The notes below the pieces were generated by a model, which saw nothing but the letters and a program-made list of their open reading frames with translations, was not told the origin of the DNA and made no database searches. Source: a virus (taxonomy: Duplodnaviria > Caudoviricetes). From it: a DNA stretch of 64,000 nt. Shown piece by piece: positions 31,052-49,808 of this stretch. The position numbers were made by a program, and so were the translations under genes. Where the stretch lies: positions 1-64,000 of IMG/VR virus record IMGVR_UViG_3300037424_001021. One strand, given 5' to 3'. Positions within the stretch are counted from its first letter, which is position 1. The number at the start of each line of letters is the position of its first letter.

Positions 31052-31465
31052 ATGTTTAATTTATTTCCTCTTTTTAAAAAAGAAAACAAAAAAGAAGATT
31101 ATCAGTATACTTGCAGTTTTTTTTCAGGTGCAGATCTGAAGTTTTATTTAGAGTTACAAAATGGTCAAAAAAAATACATACCAGAATTTCGAGAAATTTC
31201 TTGGAAAGAAGACTTGATCGAAAATCAAGTGAGAGGTCAATTGATTTTTATTATTTTTGACAGAGATGCACTTGTTCCCTTTTTACAAGATGTCAAAAAT
31301 ATTCATTTAAAAGTTGCTACTGCAGTTAAAAGAATTAGCGAATTAAAATTTGAAAATGTAATATTTACCGAACGTAGAGAGAGTCTATCAGTTGACGATT
31401 TAATTTCAGAAATACACTATAGTTTTACCGCTCAATCTTGCACTTCTTGGAAAAAACTTCAATAG
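31052..31465 (+). CDS. Miniaturised tail-tube paralogue
   Basis: SFFSGADL, GQLIFIIFDRDAL and SVDDLISEIHYSFTA align by eye with SFSGVDI, GTLIFIVFDRHVL and SIDDIVTEQQHTYVA of 27890-28558. Confidence 0.65.
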   Translation: MFNLFPLFKKENKKEDYQYTCSFFSGADLKFYLELQNGQKKYIPEFREISWKEDLIENQVRGQLIFIIFDRDALVPFLQDVKNIHLKVATAVKRISELKFENVIFTERRESLSVDDLISEIHYSFTAQSCTSWKKLQ

Positions 31466-31476
31466 TCCAATGCAAT

Positions 31477-32370
31477 ATGAAGACCATTTCGGATTTACGT
31501 GAAGATTTCGGCGCAGTTTATATAATTGAATTATCTGATGGTCAAATAGTTCCTTTTCGTCTTTTAACAATTCAAGAATATATAAAATATGATGAAGACT
31601 TTAAACGAGGTCTTATTGCTATTCCTTCTTTAGAAGAAGAACTATTCCGCCTTTGTGTGAAAAATTCTTTTTTAATTGAGAATATCAATTTACAAAAGGC
31701 GGGGACTATCAGCTCTGTTGTATCACAGATAATGCAACAATCAGGTCCACGTAGTACCGAAGAATTCAATAGTCATCTAAATTTTAGTAGAAATAAATTA
31801 AATAATAATATCTTTCATCAAATGACTTCTTTGATTTGCACGGCTTTTCCTGCATATAAACCAGAAGACGTAGAAGCCTTAACTTATGAAACTTTCATTT
31901 TGCGATTAGTTCAAGCAGAAGTAACCTTATTGAGAACTGGTTATTTAGAACAGCCCTTGGCGTTGATAAATAATGCAGAAGAAATTACAGAAAAACCTCG
32001 CAAAATAGAGAATACTCAATTAAAACAAGCATTTGAACAACAACAATTGAGACAACAAGCTGAACAAAAAGTTCCTCAAAGTCAACGCAGAGTTCGAGAA
32101 GATTTGACACATTACCCCAAAGAAAAAGTACAAGATGGCAGAGTGATAATCAGCAAAGAAGAATTACGAACTAAAACTTTTTCTGGTGCCGACCTAGAAG
32201 ATGCCGACTTATTTGAGCACGCGATGCTTACTGAAGCTGTTGATATCTATAAAGATTATTTAGAAGATGTAAAAGCTGGTAAAAAAGTTATAATTAAATC
32301 TCCAGAAGAGAAGTTAAAAGAAAGACGAATGAAAAGCAAAACTAGAAACTCTAAATTATCCAAAAAATAG
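31477..32370 (+). CDS. Extended tail-chaperone paralogue
   Basis: FGAVYII...VPFRLLTIQEY...AGTISSVVSQIMQQS resembles YGEVFVS...FVFRPLSWKEH...GGTIPTLFEQTMANS of 30617-31042. Start taken at M14 of the track ORF. Confidence 0.55.
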   Translation: MKTISDLREDFGAVYIIELSDGQIVPFRLLTIQEYIKYDEDFKRGLIAIPSLEEELFRLCVKNSFLIENINLQKAGTISSVVSQIMQQSGPRSTEEFNSHLNFSRNKLNNNIFHQMTSLICTAFPAYKPEDVEALTYETFILRLVQAEVTLLRTGYLEQPLALINNAEEITEKPRKIENTQLKQAFEQQQLRQQAEQKVPQSQRRVREDLTHYPKEKVQDGRVIISKEELRTKTFSGADLEDADLFEHAMLTEAVDIYKDYLEDVKAGKKVIIKSPEEKLKERRMKSKTRNSKLSKK

Positions 32371-32382: not shown

Positions 32383-35300
32383 TTGGCCAGATTTCCTTAT
32401 GTTTATAGTTTAGCAAGCGGCAGAGTTTACTATGGTTCTGCTTTGCCTTCTAATAATCAAAATAATCAACCTCAATATTGGACAAATCAACCTCAAATTC
32501 CTGTAACTTCTAATTTTCAAGTATTAAAAAATACTGCAATTACTGGTGGAGTTTTAGGTACAATTGGAGCAATCGGATTTCTTCCAACAAAAACAGGCAA
32601 TGTTTGGGATAAATATTTGCATGGCATGCGTGCAATTGAAGAGTTTAGTCCTGGTGGAATCCTTCGAACTTTTCAATTAAGTAATGTCTTTAGTCCATTA
32701 TCTTCTACAGTTAAAAAGGCTAATTATCATATTACGCCAGAATTATTAGCGAATAATCCGACTTATTTAGAATATCTTTCGCGATTAATTGGAGGTTCTG
32801 ATACTAAATTTAAATTATATCAACAAGGAGTAACTTTTCGAGGTGGGAAATTACATTGGGGAACTGGGAATGAACTTGCATTACGTTATTCCAGTATGTT
32901 GCTTTCTGCTGGTCATGGAACTGCTCAAAGAATTGGAGCAGCATATGCAAGAAATTTAGGATTACAGAGCAACGTTCCACTTGAACATTTTTTTGCTAAT
33001 ATTCAACCTCGCCCTGAATTAGCAGAATTGATCAATCCTTCAATTGAAAAAGAAGCGTTTCAAGTTATTGGAGGACAATCTCGTTTACAATCGTCATATC
33101 GTTACATAAGTGCAATTGGGACTGAACAAGTTGATAGATTTAATCGTCTTCTAAATGCTCAATCTGATATTCCAATTTTAAAAGAGGCTTTTGGAAAACT
33201 TCAAACTTCTTGGAAATCTGTTTTTGGCAAACCATTTAAATTAGGAGTAAAAGAAACTGGCGGTTTGCGTATGTTTGGCAAGCTTGGTTTTAAATATGGA
33301 GTTGGTTTAACTGCCTTAACTCTTGGATATCAGACTTTAGATTGGACAGCAAGACGCTCGGAATTATTAGATGATACAGTTTTGGATGAAGGTTTAACTG
33401 TAGCAGGAGCTACTGTAGGTATAAAAGCAAATCTTGCTATTTCTAAAATAGCAGAAAAATTAGGTTTACACTCTTATCGAGAAAAACAAGAAGAAATTGC
33501 ACCTGGATCTACTTCGTTAACTAAATTAGCTGCATTTCCTATAATGGGAGCATTAGCTCCTATTGGAGGGTTATATGCTTATAAAACTACTAAAATGGCT
33601 TCTCTTATTAGACAAGGATTAACTCCTGCTGCTGCCCGAGAAACTGCACAAGAAGCAATTAGTTCTTGGAAATCTGGACCTTTACTTGAACAAGTAGGCA
33701 ATATTTTTGCGAAAAAAGGCGGATTATATTCCAACGGAGGAATATTAGATAATCTAATAAAGAAAATAGCATTTCCAGATAAAGCAGGTAATTTAATCTA
33801 TAAAGGATTGGGCAAGTTAACCCCAGGTAAACTAGGTGCTGCAATGGGAGCGTCTATTGGATTAGCAATGATTGCTCCATTTTTACCTGGAGCACTTATG
33901 CCATCTCAGCGTCCTGATGAATTAGAAGCGTTATATTCTGGTAGAAAAGAAATTGCAATTCGAAAAGGCCGAGGATGGCTTATGGGCAGAAGTAAATTTG
34001 AAGGGGAAAAACCTATTACATTTTTGCCTCATTGGTTTCCTCGGATGAGAATGAGAGCAACAGAAAGAGGATTATGGGGACCTGAAGAAGATGAACGTAG
34101 CCCGATTTCTAAATGGTTAGCAAAAGAAACGAGTTACGAACTGGAGTTACGTCATTATTATGATCGGCCATATGGTTTAACCGGAACTTTCGGAGAAGAT
34201 TTACCATTGATAGGTCCATTAGTCGGAGCAACTATCGGAAGGCTCATTAAACCTCCGCGCCCAATGCATGAATCAGAATTTCAGGGAAAAGGCGGGGAAT
34301 TTTTAGTCCCTCAACCCAGATATGGAGAAAGAATAAACACTGAAATAGGACAACAATTACCAGGTAAACCAGTGTCTCCATATAGTCCTACTCAAGTAGC
34401 AGGTGAACAAATATATCGAATGTGTTTTACAAAAGATACTTCAATCAGAATGGCCGATAAAGCGTATAAAAAAATTAACGAAATTAAAATCAATGATGAA
34501 ATTTGGCAATTAAAACAGCCTAAAAGAGTAAAAAATATATTTATACATAGCCAAACAGAAGATGAACAATTAAAAGAAATTCAAGTCTATGGAGATTGGA
34601 GAAAGTTAAAAGTTACAGATAGTCATATAGTTTTAGCCTTGCAACCGAAATTCTGTTCTGCAAAAACATATAATTGTATACCTAATGGAAGTAGAGAAAG
34701 TTCTAAATGCAAAAAATGTAAAAACAAACTGTATCAAAAATATCAATTAGAGTGGATACCTGTTAAAGAATTAAAAAAATGGGATTATCTAATTCAATAT
34801 ATTCCAAAAGCGAAAGATAGCAAAAAAGAGTTATACCTCCCAGATATATTGAATATGGACAATTTTGAAATTATCGATAATCAAATATATCGACGAATAC
34901 AAAAGTCGTTTGTTCGAAAATCAAATGATTATATCAATTTTAAAGGAACTGAAATACATCGTAAGGGTAATGAGTACTCAGCTGACTACATAGATAGAAA
35001 TGCAAAAACACTGCCATTGTCAATTCCGCTAAATTGGGATTTTGGATGGCTATGTGGATATTCTTTAGCCGAAGGTTCTCCAAGAGCTTACCAAGTTAGC
35101 TACGCAGCTCATATAGATGAATTAGATTCTCATTTTAAAAAATTATTCGATTTAATGAATCTTTTTTTTAATGAAAAAGAAATACGTTGGATAGTAAAAA
35201 AAGATGGAGAACAAAAATTAACAAACGGAATTGAAGCGATTATAAATCATACCTCTCTAGCTGAACTATTGAGAAGTCTTTTGGGAATCCCTAGTCATAA

Positions 35301-38300
35301 AAAAATTAATTCTATTTTGTTAAATTCAAACAAAGAATTCTTATTAGGATTGCTTAATGGATTTATCGATGGAGATTTTCATATCAGGGAAAAAGAACTC
35401 TCTTGCAATCAATCAAATCAAATTTTACAAGAGCAACTGCGAGATATCTTTTTTAGTTTAGGGATACAGGTTAATACAACTTATGTAGAAAAAACTAATG
35501 GTATTCCAGATAAATTATACTATGCTTATGGATTTAATTTATATCGCAATGAAATATTTAAATTAAGACAATTAGGCAAATCAGGATTTAAATTATCAAA
35601 AGATATTGCGACTGGAAAAACTAAATCTACAGAAAGCTTTTTAGAAGAATATCCTGATTATTATATTTTATATAAAAAAATAAAATCAATTAAGAACTTG
35701 CCTTCTACCGACTTTCTTTATGATTTAGAAATAGAAGACAATCATCATTACTACGCCGAAGACTGCGTAGTACATAACTCCGAGATGGTGGGTTTGCCGG
35801 GCTTCATAGAGTCATCTATTAAAGAAAAATTAACTGGAACACAAGACTGGTTTGACCAGTTTGCTCAATTGGAAACTTCAAGAAGAATGGGGGGTTCTGA
35901 GAGAAATTACTGGGATAGAGAACTTGGAGATATTTTCGGAACCTCGGAGACTATTAGACGCTTTTTCCCGCATCGTCGAAGAGGTATAGATTTATACAAT
36001 CCAATTACTAATACTCAACCTTGTCTATTGCCAGATACCGAAGTTTTAATGGCAGATGGGAAATGCAAGAGAGCCGAAGATATAAAAATTGGAGAAAAAC
36101 TTATTTCTCATAAAGGAGAAGAAGTTTTTGTAGAAAATATAGGAAAATTCCCAACATCCAAAGTCGTTCATCTCTCTCTGTATGGAGATAATTTTCATAA
36201 ATTAGATTTTTCTCCAAATCATCCTATTTTAACTGATGAATTAATTTTCAAAAATGCTGAAGATATCAGAAAAGGAGATTACGTAGCCTTTCCTATTCGC
36301 AATTATGAAAAAGAAATACCAACGTACAAAATAGATATTTCAAATTTTCTCAATATAAACTGCTCAAAAACAGACAAATATTTATATTATGGAATTCAAT
36401 CTTCCAATTATATGGAAAATGAAATTGCAGAAAAGTATAAATTTAAAATTAAAGAAATTCCATTAGAAATAAAACATAAATATCCAAAATTATACAAAAT
36501 ATGCAATTATAGATTAAATAGTAATCGGAAATCTTCGTATAAAAGAATTTTAAGAAATTGGGATATTGAAGATTTTTATTATCTTATTGGAGTTTATATT
36601 ACAGAAGGTTCTGTTTTTTCGCTAAGAGATAAGTCTTTTAAACTTTCTGGTCATAAACAAGATAAATGGGAAGAAAGAATAAAAAATATTTTCAATAAAT
36701 ACGAGATTAAATATTCAATAGAAGACTCAATAACAGGAACAGGAAGAAATTTTCAGATTACCAATCCTATTCTTTTTAATATTTTAAGAGATATCTCTCC
36801 AGGTCATGCAAAGGAAAAATATATTACTGAAAATATTCTTAATCATTCTAATCCTGAAATTGCCATAAAATCACTAATTAAAGCACTGATAGATGGGGAT
36901 GGTTGTTATTTTAAAACCAAAAGCAATAGAATTAGATGTCAACTAAAGACAACTTCTAAAAATTTAGCCTATCAATTTAGAAACCTTGTAATAGATGTAT
37001 TTCATTTTGCTCCTTCAATTACTCATTCTGTTTTTAAAGAAAAAGAAAGTTTTCATATATCGCTTTCAGGTTTAAATGCAAATATTTTAGCAAAAGAAAT
37101 TGGATATCAAATTTTCGACTATACTCCTAAACAAAATAACAATAAACAATATTCAGATAATTCATACATCTATATCAAAGTAAAAAAAGTCTTAACTGAA
37201 GAAAAAGATACCTATGTAATTGGTCACCAAGTTGCAGGAGACCATACTTTTTGTGTATCTTTAATAGCTACTCATAATACGTGGATGCCCGGAGCTGGAG
37301 ATAAAAGTCCAGATTTTAGAACTGGTGATCCTATGGTCAAAATTCCATTTGGAGAAATGAGATTACCTGGACCTGGCATAGAAGCAAGATATCCAGAATT
37401 AGAAGGAGTTGCTCCAGAAGATTACAAACCCGCCTATCGCTATAAAATTCTATGTTTAGATGCTAAAACTCTTGTTATCACAGATAGCGGAATGAAATCT
37501 ATTCAAACTATTCTTGAAACAGATCAAGTTATCGGAGAAGATGGCCAATATCATTCAATACTTTCAAAAATTCATAATACTAGAATAGATGATAAATATA
37601 AATTATATACATTTTATAATTTCGAACCTTTGATCTGTAGTGCGAAACATAAAATTTTAACTTCAGATAAATCTGGAAATATAACTGAGAAAGAAGCGCA
37701 AAATATTACACAAAATGATTATTTAGTTTTTCCTAAAAGTTCTTTTGGGAATAAAAAAAATCTATGTATAGGAGACTACTGCAACACAGATGACGTAAAT
37801 ATTCAATATATAAAAGGAGTGTATTCAGCCAAAGCAAAAGGTTCTCAAAATTTTATACCTTTTAACTTAGAAGTTAATTACAACTTAGGATTTATTTTTG
37901 GATTATATCTAGCAGAGGGAGGGATTTCTAGATCAACTGTAATAACTTTTACATTTAACATCGAAGAAAAAAATACGATAGCTAAAAAAGTAGAAGAATT
38001 TTGTAATCAAATAGAACTTCCATATACTACTAGGGAAACTACCACTAATAGTTATCAAATTATCATTAGCAATAGGCTTCTAGCAAGATTTTTAGGAGAA
38101 AATTTTGGATATACCCAATATACTCATCATATTAAATTAGATTATTTAAATTATTCAAAAGAATTTGTTCAAGGAATTTTCGATGGCCATTTTAATGGAG
38201 ATGGATATATGGCTTGTACTCAAAGCACTATCAATGGTAGATCTACTTCGGTTTGTAAAGGCTTAATTGAAAATTTAAGATTAATGGGTCTAATGTTAAA

Positions 38301-40011
38301 TATAAATGGAGCTATTAATTTAAGAAAAGGAAAGTATATTGGCCAACAAGGTTACACTTTTGATATCCAAAGACGAGATTTAAAGAAAATTAAGATGGAT
38401 AAAATTCATTTGAATTATATTCCAAAATATAAAGAGTCTCAATCTAATAAATATAATTTTGAGAATGAAACTTTTCGTTTTGTTAGAGTTTCAAAAATAG
38501 AAATAGAAGAACAAGTTAATTGCGACTGGTATGACATTGCTATTGATGGAATAAACAATATTCATAGATTTGTTACTTCTCAAGGACTTGTTCACAATTC
38601 TGATGTTGCGCCATATAGTGATGCTTTTAAAACTGCTAAATTAGAAGTAATGCGCGCCCGAAAAATGAAATCTTGGACAGAAAGAGATGAAGAATTATTT
38701 ACTCAAGCAACTGATCAATTAAAAGAAAAGAAACAAGGACAACAATTTCAAGAATATCAATATCTCAATGAGATGGGCGGGTTAAGTGATAGCCCAGGTA
38801 AACAGTATGCGTCTCAATTATTAACAGAAATAAATGAAACACAAAAGAAAGGTATATCTTTTAATCAGTCAACTTTAAAAAATACAATAGGAAGTTATTG
38901 GGAATTATTAAGTCATAATGCAGAAACTGCTTTAGATCAATTAACTCCAGTATCTCCAGGAGCAAAATTAGTTCATCAACGTTCAGCAATTGAATCCTAT
39001 GAAAGAACTCAATTGTACGGTCAGTCTAATGCCTTTTGGCAACATCCTGTAAAAGATTTTCTTGCCCCATTTGCTCGTTCAGTCTCTCATGCATTTGGTT
39101 ATGAAGGAGAAAGTCCAGGTATACGCGAAAAGAGAGATATAGAAAGTTACTTTGATGTTTTAAAATATATGAAAGCTTCACGACTTGCAAATATAGCAAG
39201 GCAAGCTAAAGACGAAGAAGCTGTAAAAGAATTTGAAACTCAAAAAGACCAAACTCTTTTTGGCATAAATCCATTTACACGTAGATATGGAGACTTATTA
39301 CGAGCATTGCCAAGAGCAGAACGTGATTATCTTGGAGCATTTGAAAAAGCTGATACTTATGACGAGCGTGCAAAAATTCTTAAAATGGTTCCTGAAAATG
39401 AAAGAGGATTGTATCTTGCTCGATGGAAGTTAACCGAAGCTGACGAAATTCGTAGAGCACAAAAGGCGGGTATTTTATCACAAGACCAACTTAAACAAGC
39501 GGATAAAGAATTAGAACAATTTTATGGAGAAGCTAAAACAGAAGGGTTTCCATCTTCAAAAGAATTATTTGCAGAGTATTCTGCAACTCGTTCTTATAAT
39601 GAAAATTACGGAGATTGGTATAGAAGAATTTATCTATTGCCGAAAATTCCTAATCTTCCAGGGTCAGACTGGGTAGGATTTACTCCCCAGGTTGATTTAG
39701 AAGATATCAAAATGAAAGTCGTCAAAGAACATGGAAAAAATATTCATGATTACAATTTATGGGAATCCAGAGAAAAACAACTTGCCTATAAGTCGTATAT
39801 CAATGAAGAAGTAATTGCTCCAATTATGAAACCTAACCAGTTATCAATAGAAGAAAGAAAAAGTCAAATCAATGACGTATTACTTGCCAATGAAATCAAA
39901 GGTAGTACATTTATTAGAAGAGACAAAACTAGTAATAATTCTATAGATATTCATATAGAACAAAATAGAGATAAAGAAAAAGAAAAATTGATTTTAAAAG
40001 CATTGGATTAA
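32383..40011 (+). CDS. Tape-measure-position giant virion protein with three inteins (about 1289 aa after splicing)
   Basis: Follows the chaperones; multiple Gly-rich hydrophobic helices in the N-half; three complete inteins; TTG start. Confidence 0.65.
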   Translation: MARFPYVYSLASGRVYYGSALPSNNQNNQPQYWTNQPQIPVTSNFQVLKNTAITGGVLGTIGAIGFLPTKTGNVWDKYLHGMRAIEEFSPGGILRTFQLSNVFSPLSSTVKKANYHITPELLANNPTYLEYLSRLIGGSDTKFKLYQQGVTFRGGKLHWGTGNELALRYSSMLLSAGHGTAQRIGAAYARNLGLQSNVPLEHFFANIQPRPELAELINPSIEKEAFQVIGGQSRLQSSYRYISAIGTEQVDRFNRLLNAQSDIPILKEAFGKLQTSWKSVFGKPFKLGVKETGGLRMFGKLGFKYGVGLTALTLGYQTLDWTARRSELLDDTVLDEGLTVAGATVGIKANLAISKIAEKLGLHSYREKQEEIAPGSTSLTKLAAFPIMGALAPIGGLYAYKTTKMASLIRQGLTPAAARETAQEAISSWKSGPLLEQVGNIFAKKGGLYSNGGILDNLIKKIAFPDKAGNLIYKGLGKLTPGKLGAAMGASIGLAMIAPFLPGALMPSQRPDELEALYSGRKEIAIRKGRGWLMGRSKFEGEKPITFLPHWFPRMRMRATERGLWGPEEDERSPISKWLAKETSYELELRHYYDRPYGLTGTFGEDLPLIGPLVGATIGRLIKPPRPMHESEFQGKGGEFLVPQPRYGERINTEIGQQLPGKPVSPYSPTQVAGEQIYRMCFTKDTSIRMADKAYKKINEIKINDEIWQLKQPKRVKNIFIHSQTEDEQLKEIQVYGDWRKLKVTDSHIVLALQPKFCSAKTYNCIPNGSRESSKCKKCKNKLYQKYQLEWIPVKELKKWDYLIQYIPKAKDSKKELYLPDILNMDNFEIIDNQIYRRIQKSFVRKSNDYINFKGTEIHRKGNEYSADYIDRNAKTLPLSIPLNWDFGWLCGYSLAEGSPRAYQVSYAAHIDELDSHFKKLFDLMNLFFNEKEIRWIVKKDGEQKLTNGIEAIINHTSLAELLRSLLGIPSHKKINSILLNSNKEFLLGLLNGFIDGDFHIREKELSCNQSNQILQEQLRDIFFSLGIQVNTTYVEKTNGIPDKLYYAYGFNLYRNEIFKLRQLGKSGFKLSKDIATGKTKSTESFLEEYPDYYILYKKIKSIKNLPSTDFLYDLEIEDNHHYYAEDCVVHNSEMVGLPGFIESSIKEKLTGTQDWFDQFAQLETSRRMGGSERNYWDRELGDIFGTSETIRRFFPHRRRGIDLYNPITNTQPCLLPDTEVLMADGKCKRAEDIKIGEKLISHKGEEVFVENIGKFPTSKVVHLSLYGDNFHKLDFSPNHPILTDELIFKNAEDIRKGDYVAFPIRNYEKEIPTYKIDISNFLNINCSKTDKYLYYGIQSSNYMENEIAEKYKFKIKEIPLEIKHKYPKLYKICNYRLNSNRKSSYKRILRNWDIEDFYYLIGVYITEGSVFSLRDKSFKLSGHKQDKWEERIKNIFNKYEIKYSIEDSITGTGRNFQITNPILFNILRDISPGHAKEKYITENILNHSNPEIAIKSLIKALIDGDGCYFKTKSNRIRCQLKTTSKNLAYQFRNLVIDVFHFAPSITHSVFKEKESFHISLSGLNANILAKEIGYQIFDYTPKQNNNKQYSDNSYIYIKVKKVLTEEKDTYVIGHQVAGDHTFCVSLIATHNTWMPGAGDKSPDFRTGDPMVKIPFGEMRLPGPGIEARYPELEGVAPEDYKPAYRYKILCLDAKTLVITDSGMKSIQTILETDQVIGEDGQYHSILSKIHNTRIDDKYKLYTFYNFEPLICSAKHKILTSDKSGNITEKEAQNITQNDYLVFPKSSFGNKKNLCIGDYCNTDDVNIQYIKGVYSAKAKGSQNFIPFNLEVNYNLGFIFGLYLAEGGISRSTVITFTFNIEEKNTIAKKVEEFCNQIELPYTTRETTTNSYQIIISNRLLARFLGENFGYTQYTHHIKLDYLNYSKEFVQGIFDGHFNGDGYMACTQSTINGRSTSVCKGLIENLRLMGLMLNINGAINLRKGKYIGQQGYTFDIQRRDLKKIKMDKIHLNYIPKYKESQSNKYNFENETFRFVRVSKIEIEEQVNCDWYDIAIDGINNIHRFVTSQGLVHNSDVAPYSDAFKTAKLEVMRARKMKSWTERDEELFTQATDQLKEKKQGQQFQEYQYLNEMGGLSDSPGKQYASQLLTEINETQKKGISFNQSTLKNTIGSYWELLSHNAETALDQLTPVSPGAKLVHQRSAIESYERTQLYGQSNAFWQHPVKDFLAPFARSVSHAFGYEGESPGIREKRDIESYFDVLKYMKASRLANIARQAKDEEAVKEFETQKDQTLFGINPFTRRYGDLLRALPRAERDYLGAFEKADTYDERAKILKMVPENERGLYLARWKLTEADEIRRAQKAGILSQDQLKQADKELEQFYGEAKTEGFPSSKELFAEYSATRSYNENYGDWYRRIYLLPKIPNLPGSDWVGFTPQVDLEDIKMKVVKEHGKNIHDYNLWESREKQLAYKSYINEEVIAPIMKPNQLSIEERKSQINDVLLANEIKGSTFIRRDKTSNNSIDIHIEQNRDKEKEKLILKALD
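34423..35778 (+). mobile_element. Intein 1 (452 aa) with LAGLIDADG endonuclease and a Cys-rich insert
   Basis: M|CFTKDTSI...DCVVHN|S; GYSLAEGS and NGFIDGDF motifs. Confidence 0.93.
36022..37278 (+). mobile_element. Intein 2 (419 aa) with LAGLIDADG endonuclease
   Basis: P|CLLPDTEV...IATHN|T; GVYITEGS and KALIDGDGC motifs. Confidence 0.93.
37453..38598 (+). mobile_element. Intein 3 (382 aa) with LAGLIDADG endonuclease
   Basis: L|CLDAKTLV...GLVHN|S; GLYLAEGG and GHFNGDGY motifs. Confidence 0.93.
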
Positions 40012-40014: not shown

Positions 40015-43000
40015 ATGCCGCCGCCAAAAAAAGAAACAAATAGTGGAGATTCATTTTTAAAAGCCGCAATTAGAGTAGGCACCGCTGGTGGATTATATGC
40101 TTCGTATAGAAAAGGTAGAGATTTAAAAACAGCAAAAAATTCATTTATCGAAACAAGTCAAGCGGTTGCTAAACCTTCAGGATTTGCTAACAAAACCGAA
40201 TATCTTGCTTTTCTTGAACAGCACAAGGAATTTATGCAAACTCCAGAAGGAGCAGAATTAACAAAACAAGCTTGGTTAAGAGCAGCAGAAAATGTCTCGC
40301 CTTCGTCTAAAAATCTTCTTTCTTTTACTTCAAATTTACAAAATGCGGCGGGTACTAATGTTTATTCTGCAATTGAAGCAACAATTCAACGTAATGAATC
40401 TAAGTATATAGGACGTACTGTTTTTCAATTTAAAAGAAATTTTAATGCATTTCGTTCTCATTATTCGTTAACTAAAACACTTCCTCAATTTACTACAGCA
40501 CCTGCAACAATGGCTGGAGTAGGAGCAGGGAAAGATGTAGCAGTTAGCGCACTTCCTTCTGGGATACAAGGTTATGTGTCTCGTATGCAACAAGAACTGG
40601 GAGGTTTAGTTAAAGCTAAATTTTATACGCGAAAAGGCTGGAAAGAAACTGGACATGGACAATATCTTTTAACTTTCGATACTCCAAAGGGTAAATTTTC
40701 TGTAAATGTTCCACTGCAATCTCAAGGAACTGTCGTGGAAGGATTAACTCAATCTTCTACGAGAATTGGACAATCAACTCGATTATTTGACAAAACAACA
40801 AAAGGACTTATTGGGACATATACGGCTCCAGAATTTATGCTTTATGAATTAGAAAAGACATTAATTCCCGCAATTCAGTCAGGCAAATATCAATCTGGTT
40901 ATGATATTCAAAAAGTAATCAATACTATATATGAAGAAAATATTGGTAAACTTGAAGCTGTACCTAATATTCCTGCAAATTTACGGCAAAAAGGTTGGAA
41001 ATCTTATACAGGAATTAAAAGTAGAGCTGTTAGATTAAGATTATTAGATCAAGCAAATCAACAATCAATTTTTAGAATTCCTGGTTCAGAAGAAAGAATG
41101 GCATTATTAAGAAGTAATAGAGATTTAACTCCTTTTACTTCTCCAGGTAATTTAGCAGAAGCAACCTATAGTACATATGATCCTCGTGCCTTATTGCCTA
41201 CTCCAGAAGCAATTGATTTTAGTCGTTCGCCTCGTCAAATGAACAGAGAATGGAAGGCAACCGAATATGCATCAAGAGCAATAAGAAATCTTGGTAGAAG
41301 TAAATTTGAAACAGTGCAATGGCAAAGAGATATGGGAGTTGGTTCGTCTCCTTTATTGAAAGCAATTTATATAGATCCAGAACGTCATTCTGATTTACTT
41401 CAAAAATTCGGTATGGCAGAAGGCGAACATTTGTTTGCAGAAAATCCAGAAGTTCGAAGAATGCTTCAATCTGAAAGAATTGGTTTTTCTGGTAATTTAA
41501 AAAGTATCACTCCTAATCTAGAAAAAAGAATTCGAGAAGGACGATTTACTCCAGGCGAAATTCTTGGAATGACAACAGAAGGAGAAGCCTATAGATATCA
41601 GAAAGGAATGAATCTTCTTGGATTACAACAAGTTTCAACTAAAGGTAAAGGAGCTTTTTATCAATTAAGTTATAAAGAAGTTTATGATTTTTCAGAAGCA
41701 GAAAAAACTTTCGGAACTAAAGGAATGGGCAAGTTTGTTAATGAATTTAATGTTCAAAAAGAAATTGCACCATTGACTCAAAATGCACAGATAACTCAAG
41801 GTTTTCAAACTGTTATTAATATGGATATACTCAAAAAAGACAGACAGCTTCATAATCAACAAATGCTTGGTGCGCTACATGAAGCAATAGTTATTAGATT
41901 TAATCAAGGAGCTAATCTTTCTGGTTGGGAAAAACGTTTCTATGAGAATCCAGTTGGTATAGGAAATATGTTAAGTAAACAAGCTACGACTGGAAATATA
42001 TATAGTCATGAGAATTTTGTGGCTAATTTAATGAGATTAGCAACTCAAAAACTAAAAGTTAATCCAGAAGAATTTGGCGTAGCATTTGGTTCTGTTCCAT
42101 ATACGATGGGATTAGAATGGGCACAGCAGCAAATGGAATCATTAGCTCTCTCTCAAGCACATAGAATGTCTTTGTTTTCTGGAATTTCTGGAGGATTAGC
42201 AAGAACAGTATTTGCAGGTCCTCATTCAAGGAATGCAGGAACACTGGGAGCATTAGAACCCCGCGTTTTTGAACAACTAACCGCAGGACAATTTGGACCT
42301 ATGGGAGATCAAATTGCAGAAGATTTATTTAATAGACTTCGGGTTACTAATCCAGAACAATTTGAGACTTTTGAAGCTTTGACTAAATCTTTACGTTCAA
42401 TGACGGGAGTAATAAAACCAGGAAAAGGAGAAGAAATTTGGGATTTATCGAATATAAACAAGATTTATGAATCTCAAGCTTTTCAAGAACAAATAGAAAA
42501 AGGAAGTTTCTGGTTACGTACTGGAAAGTTTGGGATACCAGATATATACGTTCCTGGAGTTGCCGAAGCTTCAAGGTTCGAGAGATATAAGACAGCAGGG
42601 GGCGAAGCCTTCAGAGGAGATATATCAAGTTTATACCATGATTATGCGCGAAAGGCGGGTACTGTATACCAAGATGTTGGACAAATAAGCAAAGAAGAAC
42701 TTCAGCAGTCTTTTGAAGAATTGATTTCAGGAGTTCACAAACAACAAGCTCCATTAGGAAAAGGAGCTGGAGCTTTATTCGGAGGCAAGGTTCTTGGTTC
42801 GAGATACCTGACCGCAGTATCGTCAATTGCTGGATATACTCCTCCTAATCTCAATACTGTTGGAATTAGTCCAGAATATCTAAATCAAATGATGGAGGAA
42901 ATGAAAGAAACTGGACTTTACGACACAGAAACCTTAGTAAGAAATCGGAAAATTTTAGAAAGAGGTGGAACTATTCCTGGCATGATCAGACGAGATCCAG

Positions 43001-44364
43001 CAATTGGTTCTTATTCTCAACAATTAATAAATTTCCAAATGATGAAAAATGCCGAAGGTCCAGTAATTGCAGTTCCATCTCGATTGACTCAAATCGCAAT
43101 TCAGGGAGAAGAAGAGTTGAATCCAGTTAAACTTGGTCCGATGTTGGGTCTTTCTGGAGATTATGATGGAGATACAGTTGCAGCTTTTCTTCTAAATCCA
43201 AAATTAAATAAAGATATCAATCAACATTTCACATCTCTTTCATCTAATTCGGAGTATCAGCAAGCTTATATCCAACACCAGATCAGAACACAATTAATGC
43301 AAGCAAAGGGTCTTGGAGTTAAAGGCGAAGTTGGACAAACTATATTAGATAAAATGATTGCAGATGCAGAGAAATTAGGAACTACTGAGTCTTGGGTGCC
43401 TAAATTATCAAATGAATTAACTGCAATGAAAGCAGCAGTTCATAGTAAGTTATCTAGACAGACTGCGGTAAACGCCAGAGCACTTTTAGAATTTGCAGAA
43501 CAAGTGCCTGTATCAGGCAAAAAACTACCAACAGGTCAAGTTCTTAACAGAACTATGGAAAGTTTATTTCAAACGATGCATCAATCAGTGCAATCTCGTG
43601 ATCCTGTTGCATTTACCAATGTTATCAATCGTATGTTGGAATCAAGTGGACCAATAACAAAAAGACTATTAACAGGAGATTTAAATATAACTTTAGAAGA
43701 CCAAACTCCGATAACTTTAAAAGGGATGGATCTTGAAGATACAGTAAATCAAATGATGGGAGCTTATACTCAAGCTCAAGAAAGTGGAGAAGCTCGATTT
43801 TTTAATCAATTGCGTGGACAATCTACTATGAAAGTTTCAACTTTAAGACGATATCTATCAGCAGGTTCTGAATTCTTGCAAGAAAAAACAACAGGTATTG
43901 GTTCTATGTTTAAAATGGTTTCAGCAACAATAGCTGGAGCTAATGAGTTAATGGCTGTTGGTAAAAAAATATTAACAAGTAAAAAAGTTGGATTTGGTTT
44001 TGCAGGAGCCATTGGATTGGCAATGGCATTGTCTTCTCCTAAAGATTCTATAGGGCCAGCTGTTGGATTAAATACTCAACCAAATCTAAATCCTAATAAA
44101 GGAAGTTCAAGAGTATCTCCTGACCAGATAGCTCCTTCTCAGCCATTAGGAAGTCCTACGTCTCCAGACTTGTTTAGTTCTCCGAATGCTCGTATTGCTA
44201 TGACTCCTGAATCTGGTAGAATATCAATTAGAGCAACCTCAGATAGGACTGTAAATAAACTAATGCTAGTTTCTAATATGACTGGTTCTAATAGTTCAAT
44301 AAATATAAGCGACCGTTCCGAACGTTTAAATAAACATGTTTTGATAAATAAATTGCTTGGTTAA
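40015..44364 (+). CDS. Putative single-chain two-barrel (DPBB) DNA-dependent RNA polymerase, probably virion-packaged
   Basis: Beta'-like motifs in correct order: FGGKVLGSRYL (~LGKRVDYSGRSV), GMIRRDPAIG (~LLNRAPTLH), LSGDYDGDTVAAFL (~NADFDGDQMAVHV; D1049/D1051/D1053). Weaker beta-like EKTFGTKG...TVINMD upstream. Confidence 0.7.
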   Translation: MPPPKKETNSGDSFLKAAIRVGTAGGLYASYRKGRDLKTAKNSFIETSQAVAKPSGFANKTEYLAFLEQHKEFMQTPEGAELTKQAWLRAAENVSPSSKNLLSFTSNLQNAAGTNVYSAIEATIQRNESKYIGRTVFQFKRNFNAFRSHYSLTKTLPQFTTAPATMAGVGAGKDVAVSALPSGIQGYVSRMQQELGGLVKAKFYTRKGWKETGHGQYLLTFDTPKGKFSVNVPLQSQGTVVEGLTQSSTRIGQSTRLFDKTTKGLIGTYTAPEFMLYELEKTLIPAIQSGKYQSGYDIQKVINTIYEENIGKLEAVPNIPANLRQKGWKSYTGIKSRAVRLRLLDQANQQSIFRIPGSEERMALLRSNRDLTPFTSPGNLAEATYSTYDPRALLPTPEAIDFSRSPRQMNREWKATEYASRAIRNLGRSKFETVQWQRDMGVGSSPLLKAIYIDPERHSDLLQKFGMAEGEHLFAENPEVRRMLQSERIGFSGNLKSITPNLEKRIREGRFTPGEILGMTTEGEAYRYQKGMNLLGLQQVSTKGKGAFYQLSYKEVYDFSEAEKTFGTKGMGKFVNEFNVQKEIAPLTQNAQITQGFQTVINMDILKKDRQLHNQQMLGALHEAIVIRFNQGANLSGWEKRFYENPVGIGNMLSKQATTGNIYSHENFVANLMRLATQKLKVNPEEFGVAFGSVPYTMGLEWAQQQMESLALSQAHRMSLFSGISGGLARTVFAGPHSRNAGTLGALEPRVFEQLTAGQFGPMGDQIAEDLFNRLRVTNPEQFETFEALTKSLRSMTGVIKPGKGEEIWDLSNINKIYESQAFQEQIEKGSFWLRTGKFGIPDIYVPGVAEASRFERYKTAGGEAFRGDISSLYHDYARKAGTVYQDVGQISKEELQQSFEELISGVHKQQAPLGKGAGALFGGKVLGSRYLTAVSSIAGYTPPNLNTVGISPEYLNQMMEEMKETGLYDTETLVRNRKILERGGTIPGMIRRDPAIGSYSQQLINFQMMKNAEGPVIAVPSRLTQIAIQGEEELNPVKLGPMLGLSGDYDGDTVAAFLLNPKLNKDINQHFTSLSSNSEYQQAYIQHQIRTQLMQAKGLGVKGEVGQTILDKMIADAEKLGTTESWVPKLSNELTAMKAAVHSKLSRQTAVNARALLEFAEQVPVSGKKLPTGQVLNRTMESLFQTMHQSVQSRDPVAFTNVINRMLESSGPITKRLLTGDLNITLEDQTPITLKGMDLEDTVNQMMGAYTQAQESGEARFFNQLRGQSTMKVSTLRRYLSAGSEFLQEKTTGIGSMFKMVSATIAGANELMAVGKKILTSKKVGFGFAGAIGLAMALSSPKDSIGPAVGLNTQPNLNPNKGSSRVSPDQIAPSQPLGSPTSPDLFSSPNARIAMTPESGRISIRATSDRTVNKLMLVSNMTGSNSSINISDRSERLNKHVLINKLLG

Positions 44365-44366: not shown

Positions 44367-47300
44367 ATGTCTAATTTAAATACAGACACTTCTTTCTTTC
44401 AGTTGAACGATATCTGCTTATCTATTCCACCTGAAAGCATAAGTATTCAGCATAAATTGTACAATAATACTTGGCAGACACTGCGTACTCGTTCTTCGAC
44501 TAAAGTTAAATCTGGTTTTTCTCAGATTGAGATAATTGTAAAATGTAAATTTGCAGATTTAGTTTTATTTCCAACATCAGGTGGATTACCTACCAATAGT
44601 TTTTATGAATTAAGAAATTTAGTTTCTCAATTTAGAATTACTCCATTTTGTTACGTAGAAAATCAATATTTAAGGGATAACATTTTATCCGGCGATTTGT
44701 CGGAAAATATGGCGCTTGCTTTGCGACAATTAGAGATATTTACTTCTCCAGACCAAGTAAACGTAGTAGATGTAATTTTTCATTTTGCATGGTTTAACTA
44801 TGCGCCTTTTCTGAAAAATTTTACTTTTAAACGAGACATTTTTCTACCAGATGAAGTGAATGATCCTAAAGATTCTCGTGCATATAGATTATTATATTTA
44901 GCAGAACAACAGCGGGTTATATACGATCCTCTGTTAAGTTTAAATGGAGATGTTAATTTTCAATTTTATGAATATAAAGTTATTTCTAAAAAACAATATC
45001 AAGCTTTAAAACATGATTACGAGTTATATGAAAAATTGCAAAATACGAATCCTGATCTTGTTATTGGTCGAGATCAATTATTAAATCTTGGATTTGCAGC
45101 AAATGAAACTAACGCCACTTTACAAAATTTATTTGGAAATCAATCTTCACAAAGTCAAGATATTACTTTAAATGACATTATCCAGTCATTAAATTCTTCA
45201 ATTCAGGATCCTACATCTTTTATTTCAACAATCCAAAAAGATTGGAAAGTTGTATATCTTGGAGGAGAACAAAAGTCAGTAAAACTGCAAACTACTTTAA
45301 AAACTGACCACGAGATTGAAGAAACAGAACTTAATAAAATTACCGAAGAAGAAATGGTACTTCTTCAAAAAAATCACGAAATTGATTTAGCAAAAGCTGG
45401 AATTGTCGTTACAGGACTTCATATTTCATTTGAAAATATATTAGCTACTATTCCTATGTTAGGTTATAGTTATCCAACTTTTCAACATATTGGTTCTACA
45501 GATGCAGTAATTTCATTGTCATTTCAAACTGATTCAGAAGCAGGAAGTCGTACTTTATCTAATATTCTTAACATCTATAATCAACAATCTTTAACTAATA
45601 GATTTATTCCACAAGGTCATCGCAATATTCATATTACTAATGATTTACTTGGAATGTGTGGATTACGAAATTTTATCATTGAAAGCAAAAGCATTCAAAC
45701 TGTTCCTGGTCAACCAGGTGTATCTGTTGGAACTTTAGTTTTCCTTGATGATTCATTAAATGAGAATACAAGTGAACAAATTATACAAGGTCAAAGTTTT
45801 ACTACAAGTTTCGATATAAGAAACAAAATTGCAAAAATTCTAGAAAAAAATCTGCAATTAGTCTCTAATGTCTTTAAATTTAATGACGAAGGAGAAGCTA
45901 TTTTAAATTCAGAAGCAGCTATTAGAATAGCAACTGGACAAACTGTAGCCGTTGTTGCAGGAGTTGCTGGAGTACCAGGTTCTGTTACAAATATAGCAAT
46001 AACTAAATCTTCGTATTACCGATATATTGGGATAAATGATAATAATCATCAAGTCTTTAAAAAACTTTGCGAAGAATATGGTTTAAATCTTTCTATTCTC
46101 TTAGAAGAATTAGTTGAATATTTGCAAGAAAAAGAATCTTTCTTATTGCAATTAAAAAGATTTTTTAAACACACTGAATCTGGAAGTTCTTTTTTATATC
46201 ATTTTTTTGGATTAACTAATGAAGAAATTATAGGTATCAGTAAACTTCAAGAAGACATGTATCCAGTTTTTCAGAAAAATTCTCGAAGAGACGAGTTAAG
46301 CGATAGCAGAATAAGTTCTCTAAATGAATTGCAAAAATTCTCTCGCGAACAACTAGAGCAATTAAATGATATAGAAACAACAGGGACTCAAACAAGTCAA
46401 ACTCAAGATTTATTGCTTTCCTTTATGCAAGATAAATTTACAGAATGGCAACAATTTACTTCCGCTTTTTTGGATAAAATTTTGTATTCTGGTTTAATAC
46501 ATTTGCCTCAATTTAAAGAAGCTACAGATTTAATTGCAAATAATGCATTAAATAGTGGAACTGATTGTTATCCAGATTTTCCCTTACAGAATTTAGTATC
46601 CTTATTGTCTTCTTCCAAGGATAATGATTTAAATTTAGCCTTTGAAGCATTAAACCAATTATTTCAAACTACTGATTTGGGATTTAAGAATATCTCGTTA
46701 TCTTCATTGATAAATCCTGATTTTTATTTTTTCAACAGAGTGACAGATACTATTGATGAAATTGTTCCTTCAGATATCGTCAAAAGAGCTACAGATGGAA
46801 TTATCAAAGCCAGAGAAATGATGGAGCCAGCTGAAAGTGATTGGATGAAAAAAGTTTATGAAACAAATCTTTTGACAGATATAAGAAGTAAACAAATTAC
46901 TGCCGATATGGCCAAACCACTAGCAGACAAAAGTTTAGAAAAAGCATTTCAAACAAAGGCAGGACAGTCTTATAGAAATCATTTACAAAGAGCAACAATT
47001 TTTGCACCAAATCAATTAGTAGGAAGTATTACCTCTGCAATTAAAGAATCTTCATATGGTAAAGATATAATTGAATTACCTGCATTTAGTTTAAGCAACA
47101 ATTCTCAAAATGTATTAACTAACGAGAGACAAGCTATTAATTTAACTGTTAATTCGAGTATTCCTGAAATAAAACATAATTTTGATACAGAAGAGGTATT
47201 AAAACCAATTAATCAACCAAATTCTCAAATTGTTTTTAACGGGACTATCGAAACTCAATTAATTGACAGTCAAGGACATAGTTTGCAAAAAGATGCCGCT

Positions 47301-49808
47301 ATTAATTTTAAAATTATGGCAGCACAAGCAAGACAAGAAGGTATCAATTTAGTTGTTAATTCAGCCTATAGGGACAATGAGTATCAAGCAATATTGTATG
47401 AAAAATATCTAGTAGAATTAGCAAAATTCAATCAAGAAGAAATCACAGAGCGTCCTGCGCCAGCAGCAGCTCCTGGTAAAAGTAAACATAATCAAGGACT
47501 TGCAGTAGATATTCAAGTTGAAGATTCTTTTGAAAGCACAGTATACATGTGGCTCGACAAGAATGCTCCAGATTATGGTTTTATTAACACAGGGAAAAAC
47601 TTTAAAAGACCTGAACCTTGGCATTGGGAATTTCAACCAGATATGGTAACAAATACAGAACAGATAAGTTCTATTGGGGCAGCAATTGACCCTAACAATG
47701 AATCTCTTTTAACTAAAAGTTTAAATCAATTACAGAAAGATATATATACTAGTCAGGGTTATACGATGATGCGAGCATACCCTACTTTTAAATTATATTT
47801 TATTGAGTCAGATTTAGGAGAACGTAAACGATATGCTTTTGATGACTTTTTTAGTTATTCAGCAGTCAAATCTATCGAGTTGATTAGAAGCAGAAAAATC
47901 GCGGCGGATTTATTGTTACTCGAATTGACAAACATATCAGGTATTTTATCAAATAGAAAATTTCAATCTGCATATGACCCAACAAAACCAAGAGATGCGC
48001 AATCTTCTTCAAGAGAAAATCTCAATAATAGAACAGATGTAAATACTTTAAATGAGAATCCTATCGCATCTTTAATGTTACAACCTGGAGTCCAAATACA
48101 ACTTCGTTTAGGCTATTCCAATTCACCTGAAGAATTAGAAAAAGTCTTTAATGGTATTATTACCGATGTGGAATTTTCAGAAACAGATGATTTAGTTAGT
48201 ATTGTGTGTCAAAGTTTTGCTATCGAATTAGTTCAATCGATTCATGGCGAAAGTAAAAGTTGGGGTGGATGGTTCTCTGGAAATGGAAAAACATTCAAAA
48301 TTTTAGAAGAAGTTTTAGCTTCTCCAGAAGTTGTCCATTTTGGCAGATGGGAAGGAGGAGATTTTGGAAGAAATACTCAACGCTCTTTGTTAACAAAAAG
48401 ATGGAAATTTATTCCTGCTCCTCAAGATGACAATATTTTTGCTCCTCAAGGAGATACAGGTATTGGTTTTATTGATTCTATAATAGGTTCTCATAAGTAT
48501 ACAATGTATCAAACTACTTTATGGGATGTCATTCAAGAAATGACATTGCGTCATCCTTCGTATATTGCTTCTGTTGTTCCATATGACGGGAAAGATGGAC
48601 CAAGATCTACAATGTTTTTTGGAGTACCAGATCAATTGTATTTTGCAAGAGATTCTTCTTATACAGAAGATACTGTTGCTAGTAATTTAAATTCTCAAAT
48701 AGATAATTCAGAAATTTCTGCAAGAGATGCGTCAAGAGATGCCAATGTTGAGCCAATTAACGCCTTAGCTCGCAAAGAAGAAGATTCTTTGTATAGAAAA
48801 CGTTATTTTGAATTACTAAAAAAACAATATGGACTCAATCGAGGATTCATTAAGCCTTTTCGAAATTATCATATTGCTACGTCTGGAATGCATATTGTAT
48901 ATAACAATATTAGCGCTTCTGGACACAATACGTTCAATACAGCCACCGTTCAATATGGAAAAAGTGCCGCTGATCCAAATGAAAAAACTGGTCAATTAGA
49001 TTTTGATGGTTCCAGTACGTTTACGTTGAAAGCAGATGCGGCAATTCCTGACGAAGATATCAGAGAACTATCTGTTCAATATCCAAATTGTATTGGTGAA
49101 GAGGTTGCAAAAAATTATTGTTTAAGTTTGCTTTTTAATTCATTAAAAGATTCTTATAAAGGAAATCTTGTTTTAATAGGCAATCCGAAAATTAAACCAT
49201 TTGATATTGTCTACTGTTTCGACACCTATAATGATCTTGTAGGGCCCATTGAAGTTGAGCAGGTAATTCATAAATTTTCTCAAGAAACTGGATTTATAAC
49301 AGAAGTAACTCCCGATATGGTAGTACATGTTAATCAGCATTCTACCCTTTCTACAAGTGACGCAATGGGATATATCGCAGAATATGCACTAAAAAAAATC
49401 GGTGTTACTAATAATGTTTTAACTGGTTTAAAAATTGCTGGCAATGTTGCAACTCTGCCTTTACTTCCTCTCTCTCCATTAGCTGCTATGTTTTTTAATT
49501 CAGCTGAACATACTTTGTCCACTGGTACTAATAATTCTCCTTTGGCTTTAATTGGGACTTTTGTATTTAAAAAATTAATTACACGAACTCAGTTAGCTCA
49601 TCCATTTAGATTTAGTCCCTTAGTTTTACAATCTCATCCAATGATTGGAGGACTACCTAATAGAAAGACAGATGGTGGTTTTTTTCAACCTTTCGGTGAA
49701 TGGAAGAAAGACTTTAAAGACTATAGTTCTCAATATCTTGAACATCTTATGGATAAATTTAATCCAAATAATTGGCTTGATAAATCCGAAGGAGATATTA
49801 AATTTTAA
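44367..49808 (+). CDS. Baseplate hub (gp27/gpD-like) with an inserted M15B/VanY-type peptidoglycan peptidase
   Basis: NSAYR...PGKSKHNQGLAVDI...EPWHWEF at about 47260-47635. Hub-like motifs IQLRLGY...VFNGIITDV...IVCQS and GNPKIKPFD...EVEQVIHKFS...GFITEVTP. Confidence 0.75.
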   Translation: MSNLNTDTSFFQLNDICLSIPPESISIQHKLYNNTWQTLRTRSSTKVKSGFSQIEIIVKCKFADLVLFPTSGGLPTNSFYELRNLVSQFRITPFCYVENQYLRDNILSGDLSENMALALRQLEIFTSPDQVNVVDVIFHFAWFNYAPFLKNFTFKRDIFLPDEVNDPKDSRAYRLLYLAEQQRVIYDPLLSLNGDVNFQFYEYKVISKKQYQALKHDYELYEKLQNTNPDLVIGRDQLLNLGFAANETNATLQNLFGNQSSQSQDITLNDIIQSLNSSIQDPTSFISTIQKDWKVVYLGGEQKSVKLQTTLKTDHEIEETELNKITEEEMVLLQKNHEIDLAKAGIVVTGLHISFENILATIPMLGYSYPTFQHIGSTDAVISLSFQTDSEAGSRTLSNILNIYNQQSLTNRFIPQGHRNIHITNDLLGMCGLRNFIIESKSIQTVPGQPGVSVGTLVFLDDSLNENTSEQIIQGQSFTTSFDIRNKIAKILEKNLQLVSNVFKFNDEGEAILNSEAAIRIATGQTVAVVAGVAGVPGSVTNIAITKSSYYRYIGINDNNHQVFKKLCEEYGLNLSILLEELVEYLQEKESFLLQLKRFFKHTESGSSFLYHFFGLTNEEIIGISKLQEDMYPVFQKNSRRDELSDSRISSLNELQKFSREQLEQLNDIETTGTQTSQTQDLLLSFMQDKFTEWQQFTSAFLDKILYSGLIHLPQFKEATDLIANNALNSGTDCYPDFPLQNLVSLLSSSKDNDLNLAFEALNQLFQTTDLGFKNISLSSLINPDFYFFNRVTDTIDEIVPSDIVKRATDGIIKAREMMEPAESDWMKKVYETNLLTDIRSKQITADMAKPLADKSLEKAFQTKAGQSYRNHLQRATIFAPNQLVGSITSAIKESSYGKDIIELPAFSLSNNSQNVLTNERQAINLTVNSSIPEIKHNFDTEEVLKPINQPNSQIVFNGTIETQLIDSQGHSLQKDAAINFKIMAAQARQEGINLVVNSAYRDNEYQAILYEKYLVELAKFNQEEITERPAPAAAPGKSKHNQGLAVDIQVEDSFESTVYMWLDKNAPDYGFINTGKNFKRPEPWHWEFQPDMVTNTEQISSIGAAIDPNNESLLTKSLNQLQKDIYTSQGYTMMRAYPTFKLYFIESDLGERKRYAFDDFFSYSAVKSIELIRSRKIAADLLLLELTNISGILSNRKFQSAYDPTKPRDAQSSSRENLNNRTDVNTLNENPIASLMLQPGVQIQLRLGYSNSPEELEKVFNGIITDVEFSETDDLVSIVCQSFAIELVQSIHGESKSWGGWFSGNGKTFKILEEVLASPEVVHFGRWEGGDFGRNTQRSLLTKRWKFIPAPQDDNIFAPQGDTGIGFIDSIIGSHKYTMYQTTLWDVIQEMTLRHPSYIASVVPYDGKDGPRSTMFFGVPDQLYFARDSSYTEDTVASNLNSQIDNSEISARDASRDANVEPINALARKEEDSLYRKRYFELLKKQYGLNRGFIKPFRNYHIATSGMHIVYNNISASGHNTFNTATVQYGKSAADPNEKTGQLDFDGSSTFTLKADAAIPDEDIRELSVQYPNCIGEEVAKNYCLSLLFNSLKDSYKGNLVLIGNPKIKPFDIVYCFDTYNDLVGPIEVEQVIHKFSQETGFITEVTPDMVVHVNQHSTLSTSDAMGYIAEYALKKIGVTNNVLTGLKIAGNVATLPLLPLSPLAAMFFNSAEHTLSTGTNNSPLALIGTFVFKKLITRTQLAHPFRFSPLVLQSHPMIGGLPNRKTDGGFFQPFGEWKKDFKDYSSQYLEHLMDKFNPNNWLDKSEGDIKF

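Follow-up and report, generated by a model that had tools for sequence, protein, structure and literature searches.

Three class-1 inteins clustered in the conserved core of a phage virion-module protein, a family-wide hotspot of intein insertion

Inteins typically occupy catalytic or ligand-binding motifs, and a high density of them is otherwise found in replication and nucleotide-metabolism enzymes and in terminases. Among cellular proteins with multiple inteins, Methanocaldococcus RFC has three and the ribonucleotide reductase of Trichodesmium has several. Here, a comparable arrangement is described for a tailed virus (Duplodnaviria; Caudoviricetes). The window, i.e., the whole stretch of DNA analysed, comprises 64,000 nucleotides (nt) and corresponds to positions 1 to 64,000 of the IMG/VR record IMGVR_UViG_3300037424_001021; one of its open reading frames (ORFs) encodes, very probably, a precursor that would yield, once three homing inteins are spliced out, a conserved virion-module protein of ~1289 amino acids (aa), in which the insertions are clustered by virtue of a family-wide hotspot. 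As in RFC and ribonucleotide reductase, several independent class-1 homing inteins each appear to sit in a conserved motif, with many alternative sites across the family; those hosts, however, are enzymes that act in replication or nucleotide metabolism and whose fold is known, whereas the present host is a phage virion-module protein with at least 16 family sites in the sample. In actinobacteriophages, inteins have been reported in the terminase large subunit, portal, minor capsid and tape measure proteins (bioRxiv 10.1101/2025.01.02.630785; PMC3556154), which are likewise virion or assembly genes of tailed phages, and the present contig also harbours a terminase intein. In the passages covered, these reports describe one intein per host protein, and a term search of the preprint (bioRxiv 10.1101/2025.01.02.630785) revealed no mention of two, three or multiple inteins, in contrast to the three found here in one protein of a different, uncharacterised family. 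Inteins and multi-intein proteins being already known, the elements themselves are ordinary; it is the host family and the number of inteins it bears that deserve further attention.

The precursor is a single plus-strand frame of 2542 aa with a TTG start, preceded at 8-9 nt by an AGGT motif, and its N-terminus agrees with the family consensus. Inteins account for 1253 of the 2542 residues, and the spliced extein would amount to 680 + 81 + 58 + 470 = 1289 aa; owing to the short exteins of 81 and 58 aa between the inteins, all three insertion points fall within 139 extein residues. Intein boundaries were set by string matching of the junctions, while the blocks were compared by aligning both terminal regions of the three inteins with those of 16 related family inteins. 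Each intein begins with Cys1 (CFTKD, CLLPD and CLDAK for inteins 1, 2 and 3, respectively), contains the block B motif [T/S]xxH (TDSH, SPNH and SAKH) and closes block F/G with His-Asn ahead of a Ser or Thr (VVHN/S, ATHN/T and LVHN/S, the slash marking the junction). The Pfam model Intein_splicing matched the precursor in three stretches (77.4 bits against a cut-off of 35.8), and matches to Hom_end_hint (48.2 against 32.1; in intein 2), Vint (30 against 27) and Hint were also obtained. With regard to the endonuclease, LAGLIDADG_3 was detected (E 9.7e-11; 42.2 bits against a cut-off of 22.5), most strongly in intein 2, which carries the motifs YLIGVYITEG and LIKALIDGDG; for intein 1 (GYSLAEG and LLNGFIDGDF) and intein 3 (FIFGLYLAEG and FVQGIFDGHF..GDG) the evidence is at the level of motifs. 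The LAGLIDADG-type motifs of all three end in Glu or Asp. Furthermore, all three segments are precise in-frame insertions, across whose junctions 56 intein-free homologues align without gaps, and the agreement of these lines of evidence goes well past what chance could produce. At the level of sequence, the inserts are thus confirmed as genuine, intact-looking class-1 inteins, for which splicing and homing-endonuclease activity are predicted. Every number of the original prediction (inteins of 452, 419 and 382 aa, extein spacings of 81 and 58 residues and +1 residues Ser, Thr and Ser) was reproduced by junction matching.

Pairwise identity among the three inteins is only ~19-27%, which argues for independent acquisitions rather than duplications; such mutually dissimilar inteins may also serve as orthogonal splicing parts. 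A foreign origin, suggested by the low GC content of the inteins (0.27-0.28 against 0.33-0.42), was considered and rejected, since GC content at third codon positions (GC3) is similar in inteins (0.15-0.20) and exteins (0.17-0.33), and the gap is therefore attributed to amino-acid composition. As a separate observation, intein 1 contains a four-Cys cluster (C-x6-C-x10-C-x2-C) that closely follows block B and looks like a small zinc ribbon, and similar clusters occur in family inteins at sites 680, 780, 795 and 1178 (extein coordinates of the window protein).

The chemistry of class-1 intein splicing is established and is applied to the present precursor by inference. After translation, each intein would excise itself in four steps: an N-S acyl shift at Cys1 is followed by transesterification to the +1 Ser or Thr, the terminal Asn then cyclises, and a final O-N shift leaves the four extein pieces ligated into the mature protein. 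During co-infection, the endonuclease domains would cut intein-less alleles, into which the intein would then be copied (homing). Survival of inteins in conserved blocks would follow from the conservation of the target DNA across diverged phages and from the lethality of imprecise loss.

Searches with the N- and C-exteins by tblastn against cultured phages returned matches confined to a small clade, comprising gp35 of Acinetobacter phage ME3 (1263 aa; E 1e-17 with the N-extein and 7e-16 with the C-extein, 97% covered), gp145 of Bacillus phage 0305phi8-36 (E 2e-11), Moorella phage MTATph1 and two other Bacillus jumbo phages. In the 0305phi8-36 record, gp145 is a virion protein identified by mass spectrometry, while ME3 gp35 is annotated as 'virion structural protein'. 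Both are homologous to the exteins of the window protein and occupy the same slot after the chaperone genes but, unlike it, are devoid of inteins; gp145 is moreover longer (1930 aa) and carries non-intein insertions. As the genomes of these cultured relatives measure 177-235 kb, the source of the window (a record of 76,160 nt, estimated to be 37% complete) is likely a jumbo phage. A search with the N-extein among longer proteins yielded 65 relatives, most of them 1228-1348 aa in length. The intein-free homologues (~1250-1310 aa) are colinear with the 1289-aa spliced product, the closest being P0003 (65% identity; 1263 aa), whereas eight of the 65 relatives measure ~1650-1720 aa and contain one intein each, mostly at sites other than those of the window. 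Among 1.84 billion representatives, a profile of the C-terminal 761 positions recovered 2105 proteins at E<=1e-3, of which 1400 also passed E<=1e-30; IMG/VR yielded 64 loci of the family, and a scan of 185,579 species genomes found it on only three contigs of metagenome-assembled genomes, which allowed no clear assignment of a host. The family is essentially phage-only. Among what is new is this host: a phage-only family of more than 2000 representative clusters without annotation, Pfam model or detectable structural relative.

To place the clustering in the context of the family, large insertions in 204 of its proteins were mapped on the extein coordinates of the window protein, an intein being called where a C...[H]N/(S/T/C) junction was consistent with the profile. 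Inteins were present in 59 of the 204 members (~29%), of which 46 carry one and 12 carry two; only the protein of the window has three. They occupy at least 16 sites (533, 536, 541, 567, 599, 680, 687, 734/735, 761, 766, 780, 795/796, 819, 1175, 1178 and 1196), the commonest being 536, with one further unclear case near 634, and such a number of insertion points and such occupancy are likewise new for this host family. All are confined to extein residues 533-819 and 1175-1196; no intein was mapped to the N-terminal 530 residues or to residues 820-1174 in any of the 204 members. Since inteins mark sites intolerant of imprecise deletion, these two segments are flagged as the functional heart of the protein. 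The three sites of the window are shared with other members, namely site 680 with P0068, P0069, P0086 and P0089, site 761 with P0029 (whose intein shows ~51% identity) and P0164, and site 819 with P0103 and P0162.

Several features of this map are as a homing cycle would predict. Intein identity is 34-57% at the same site against ~20-27% between different sites, and same-site inteins are often closer to each other than are their exteins (40.5% against 28.6%; 47.1% against 34.3%). At site 536, mini-inteins of 151-190 aa without an endonuclease domain (L010:3231-7598; P0096 and P0145) occur alongside full-length inteins of 370-405 aa in other members. The +1 residue also differs with occupancy, being mostly Glu or Asp at site 761 and mostly Ala at site 819 in intein-free alleles but Thr or Ser in intein-bearing ones. 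The filling of the same sites by related inteins in diverged hosts would further lend indirect support to site-specific cleavage. The clustering in the window gene is thus one instance of a family-wide hotspot, located in a conserved and confidently folded domain.

Conservation of the extein was profiled over the 56 intein-free sequences. Against a mean column identity of 0.56, the highest sustained values (0.73-0.81) are attained at extein 741-820, the stretch holding inteins 2 and 3, and, once conservation is smoothed, sites 680, 761 and 819 of the window rank at the 87th, 99th and 94th percentiles, respectively. For eight intein sites taken together, the mean conservation percentile is 0.91, a value reached by 2 of 100,000 random draws (P ~2e-5). 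Gly, Pro, Trp, Tyr, Arg and Lys make up most of the invariant columns, to which are added a single Glu and one Asp whose invariance is complete in some alignments and nearly so in the widest; the conserved motifs of the core include PHRRR and HGDP. Such invariant residues would be expected of a domain for interaction or architecture no less than of an enzyme. The N-extein, for its part, has Gly-rich segments centred near aa 60, 390 and 497 (Kyte-Doolittle 1.3-1.6). Beside one such hydrophobic segment lies the QEEIAPGST block (extein aa 361-380; nt ~33463-33522), which at an identity of 0.80 is among the three most conserved 20-residue blocks and yet is intein-free in 204 of 204 members.

For structure prediction with AlphaFold2 (AF2) and family alignments, an intein-free homologue (L015), 51% identical to the extein of the window, was used. 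The model of its C-terminal 814 aa is compact (mean predicted local distance difference test score, pLDDT, 81.2; predicted template modelling score, pTM, 0.78), and that of its 365-aa core scores higher still (pLDDT 88.0; pTM 0.87) and is mostly helical with few short strands. The stretch equivalent to extein ~750-830, which holds sites 761, 780, 795 and 819, is rich in coil yet is modelled at a pLDDT of 94-98. In these models, the first intein block, i.e., the core with the three inteins of the window, is the most confident part of the predicted fold. A poorly conserved core without a defined fold had been named in the original prediction as the outcome that would speak against its claim of a strongly conserved domain; the core was instead found to be both conserved and, in the models, well defined.

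Relatives of known structure or function were sought with little return. Foldseek against the PDB gave best E values of 0.26 (814-aa model) and 2.7 (365-aa model). VIA-align against 48,161 representatives reached Z of at most 7.6 for the 814-aa model, on one helical hairpin (53 aa; root-mean-square deviation, rmsd, 1.7), and a best Z of 5.4 for the 365-aa model, on ~80 aa of helices (rmsd 3.7). A profile search against PDB sequences produced a best E of 0.22. There was no extein match in Pfam at E<=1 with the intein-free homologues and no match in NCBIfam with P0003, while PHROGs yielded just weak matches on the precursor, all within intein regions. BFVD returned only uncharacterised viral homologues of the host protein, one of them bearing the name 'Large polyvalent protein associated domain-containing protein', which could not be linked to the region matched, and the ESM Atlas offered no usable match for the core or for the 1449-aa product of the downstream gene. 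The core is therefore described as conserved, with a defined predicted fold for which these searches found no known relative, which falls short of proof of a new fold.

The gene lies in a tail module (Table 1) whose order of sheath, tube, tube paralogue, chaperone genes, gp145-like gene, giant gene and hydrolase-domain hub is shared with ME3 and 0305phi8-36; in the window itself, the sheath, the tube-like proteins and the hub with its hydrolase regions are borne out by PHROGs and Pfam. Directly upstream, the overlapping ORF pair contains G AAA AAA at 31450-31456, in a register that would permit a -1 shift between the two frames, and is thus suggested to be a G/GT-type tail-chaperone arrangement with a predicted -1 frameshift. 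Directly downstream, the 1449-aa protein carries D1049, D1051 and D1053, invariant in its 17 alignable relatives, which occupy the same gene slot; a conserved RHPxIG-type motif precedes GDYDGD. Across 55 distinct loci, DxDxD was present at 69-86% of the length in 51 of the 55 ORFs downstream of gp145-like genes, whereas the controls gave 2 of 43 for third-slot ORFs and 2 of 61 for gp145-like ORFs; the gene downstream of ME3 gp35 has the motif, while its counterpart in 0305phi8-36 is without it. This neighbour had no Pfam or PDB-sequence match, no match to the Pfam models Rpb1_2 and Rpb2_6 at E<=10 and no tblastn match in cultured phages, and three rounds of profile iteration from it did not reach ME3_36 or 0305phi8-36 gp146. 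It is regarded as a candidate tape measure / virion RNA polymerase.

Table 1. Coordinates of the intein-bearing gene, its parts and its neighbours in the window
Feature	Position (nt)	Strand	Remarks
Tail-chaperone-like pair (137 aa, 310 aa)	31052-31465 and 31438-32370	+	overlapping; synteny with ME3_33/34 and 0305phi8-36 orf143/144
Precursor ORF	32383..40011	+	0305phi8-36 gp145 / ME3 gp35-family virion protein, three inteins
N-extein, aa 1-680	32383..34422	+	QEEIAPGST invariant; conserved core begins here
Intein 1, aa 681-1132, 452 aa	34423..35778	+	family site 680; C...HN, +1 Ser
Extein segment 2, 81 aa	35779..36021	+	
Intein 2, aa 1214-1632, 419 aa	36022..37278	+	family site 761; C...HN, +1 Thr
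Extein segment 3, 58 aa	37279..37452	+	within most conserved block; family sites 780 and 795 empty here
Intein 3, aa 1691-2072, 382 aa	37453..38598	+	family site 819; C...HN, +1 Ser
C-extein, 470 aa plus stop	38599..40011	+	helical; family sites 1175, 1178 and 1196 empty here
1449-aa neighbour	40015..44364	+	D1049/D1051/D1053 (GDYDGD) invariant
1813-aa protein	44367..49808	+	slot of 0305phi8-36 gp147 / ME3_37 baseplate hub by synteny; endolysin-like and VanY-type peptidase regions

On the basis of position, hydrophobic segments and synteny, we tentatively suggest, as a reading that falls somewhat short of probable, that the host is a tail-internal or ejected protein. In this view, the N-terminal half, hydrophobic and rich in Gly, would make contact with the cell envelope, and the C-terminal domain, globular and helical, would act together with the downstream DxDxD protein during genome entry. 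A precedent for tail-delivered transcription machinery is provided by Thermus phage P23-45, in which the tape measure is fused to a virion RNA polymerase (PMC10770324); the likeness lies in a giant tail-slot protein with DxDxD, which in the window stands beside the gp145-like gene. The precedent, however, concerns the neighbour of the intein host rather than the host itself, the tail of P23-45 is non-contractile, and a search of the P23-45 paper (PMC10770324) revealed no mention of inteins. Various points weigh against the interpretation given here for the precursor and its product. The fold models derive from a homologue of 51% identity that stands in for the spliced sequence of the window, the splicing and endonuclease activities are deduced from sequence, and in the searches above the host protein bears no similarity to any protein of known function. 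The Gly-rich segments of the N-extein are just moderately hydrophobic, a folded domain of ~800 aa, as modelled, would be too large for the lumen of the tail tube, and gene order within tail modules is conserved in general, so that adjacency lends weak support to a partnership with the DxDxD protein. A bolder proposal, that the gp145-like and DxDxD proteins are obligate partners in an injected entry-and-transcription machine belonging to a large lineage of mostly uncultured jumbo myoviruses and that the core is a new catalytic or polymerase/DNA-binding domain of a fold so far absent from the PDB, is unlikely. Partnership of the core with an RNA polymerase, as originally proposed, is compatible with its tight pairing to the DxDxD gene, adjacency being the sole support. 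The almost constant pairing of the gp145-like gene with the DxDxD gene, likewise new, makes the two well suited to structural and genetic study in ME3, a relative available in culture.

One alternative is that the tape measure of the tail, or a co-ruler, is the host of the inteins, the next gene being something else. The host gene follows directly after the G/GT-like chaperone pair, the classical slot of tape measures, the hydrophobic Gly-rich segments of its product resemble those of many tape measures, and the next gene, with its invariant DxDxD, appears enzyme-like. Tape measures, however, evolve fast, whereas this protein retains a near-constant length (~1250-1310 aa) and a conserved sequence across very diverged phages; its C-terminal 800 aa are modelled as compact rather than as an extended coil, and it has no tape-measure match in Pfam or PHROGs. 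Furthermore, the tape measure of 0305phi8-36 has been assigned from tail length to orf146, with the chaperonin genes 'one gene removed' from it (PMC2147016); as the gene lying between them is homologous to the intein host, the published assignment makes the host something other than the tape measure. The enzyme-like appearance of the next gene is no obstacle, the polymerase fusion of P23-45 showing that such a protein can be the ruler (PMC10770324). We therefore consider it quite unlikely that the host is the ruler, and take it to be probably not the protein that sets tail length. The original description of a protein in tape-measure position thus stands as regards position, directly after the chaperone-like pair, and its view that the protein is no passive ruler agrees with both the compact model and the assignment of orf146.

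It is also unlikely that the intein-dense core is the active site of an enzyme acting, for instance, on nucleic acid or the cell wall. Such a site would fit the usual preference of inteins for catalytic motifs, Arg-rich and His motifs (PHRRR and HGDP) are conserved in the core, and sites 761-819 lie in the region of pLDDT 94-98; on the other hand, the invariant columns include just one Glu and one (near-)invariant Asp, no enzyme family was matched in Pfam, NCBIfam, PHROGs or the PDB profile search, and the core model gave nothing better than E 2.7 with Foldseek and Z 5.4 with VIA-align. The suggestion of a catalytic core consequently finds no backing, its invariant residues being mostly Gly, Pro, Trp, Tyr, Arg and Lys and the PDB offering neither a sequence nor a fold match. 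A role of the three inteins as a conditional switch (redox, zinc or temperature) gating virion assembly is very unlikely. Cys1 in all three inteins and the four-Cys cluster of intein 1 could be read in its favour, and conditional splicing has been published for other inteins (PMC6195587; PMC7360933); the closest relatives, however, lack inteins altogether, and patchy presence together with mini-inteins fits selfish elements of the homing cycle. The idea that virion assembly is conditionally controlled by splicing, also raised originally, is thus without support and amounts to pure speculation. It is likewise very unlikely that the inserts are decayed, non-splicing inteins, with the gene dead or the inserts kept in the protein. 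The record is an uncultured metagenomic contig of incomplete length, as such a reading might have it, but the 7.6-kb frame is intact, the nucleophiles, block B His, terminal His-Asn and +1 residues are all present in the three inteins, and intein GC3 is near the extein range, as for long-resident, expressed sequence.

Apart from the above, in a distant homologue of the host protein (L043:7652-13168) the ORF begins with a fused staphylococcal nuclease (SNase) domain at the N-terminus (E 7e-15), a fusion that gives a weak hint of an injected, effector-like role. Elsewhere in the window, a fourth intein with a LAGLIDADG domain is found in the large terminase (ORF 7714-10842; aa 145-502, nt ~8146-9219), the C-extein of which matches the terminases of ME3, 0305phi8-36 and Moorella phage MTATph1. 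Finally, a TnpB-like ORF (51074-52120, minus strand; Pfam OrfB_IS605 and Cas12f1-like TNB) lies among the plus-strand structural genes and is the only minus-strand ORF of at least 120 aa between ~2.4 and 64 kb.

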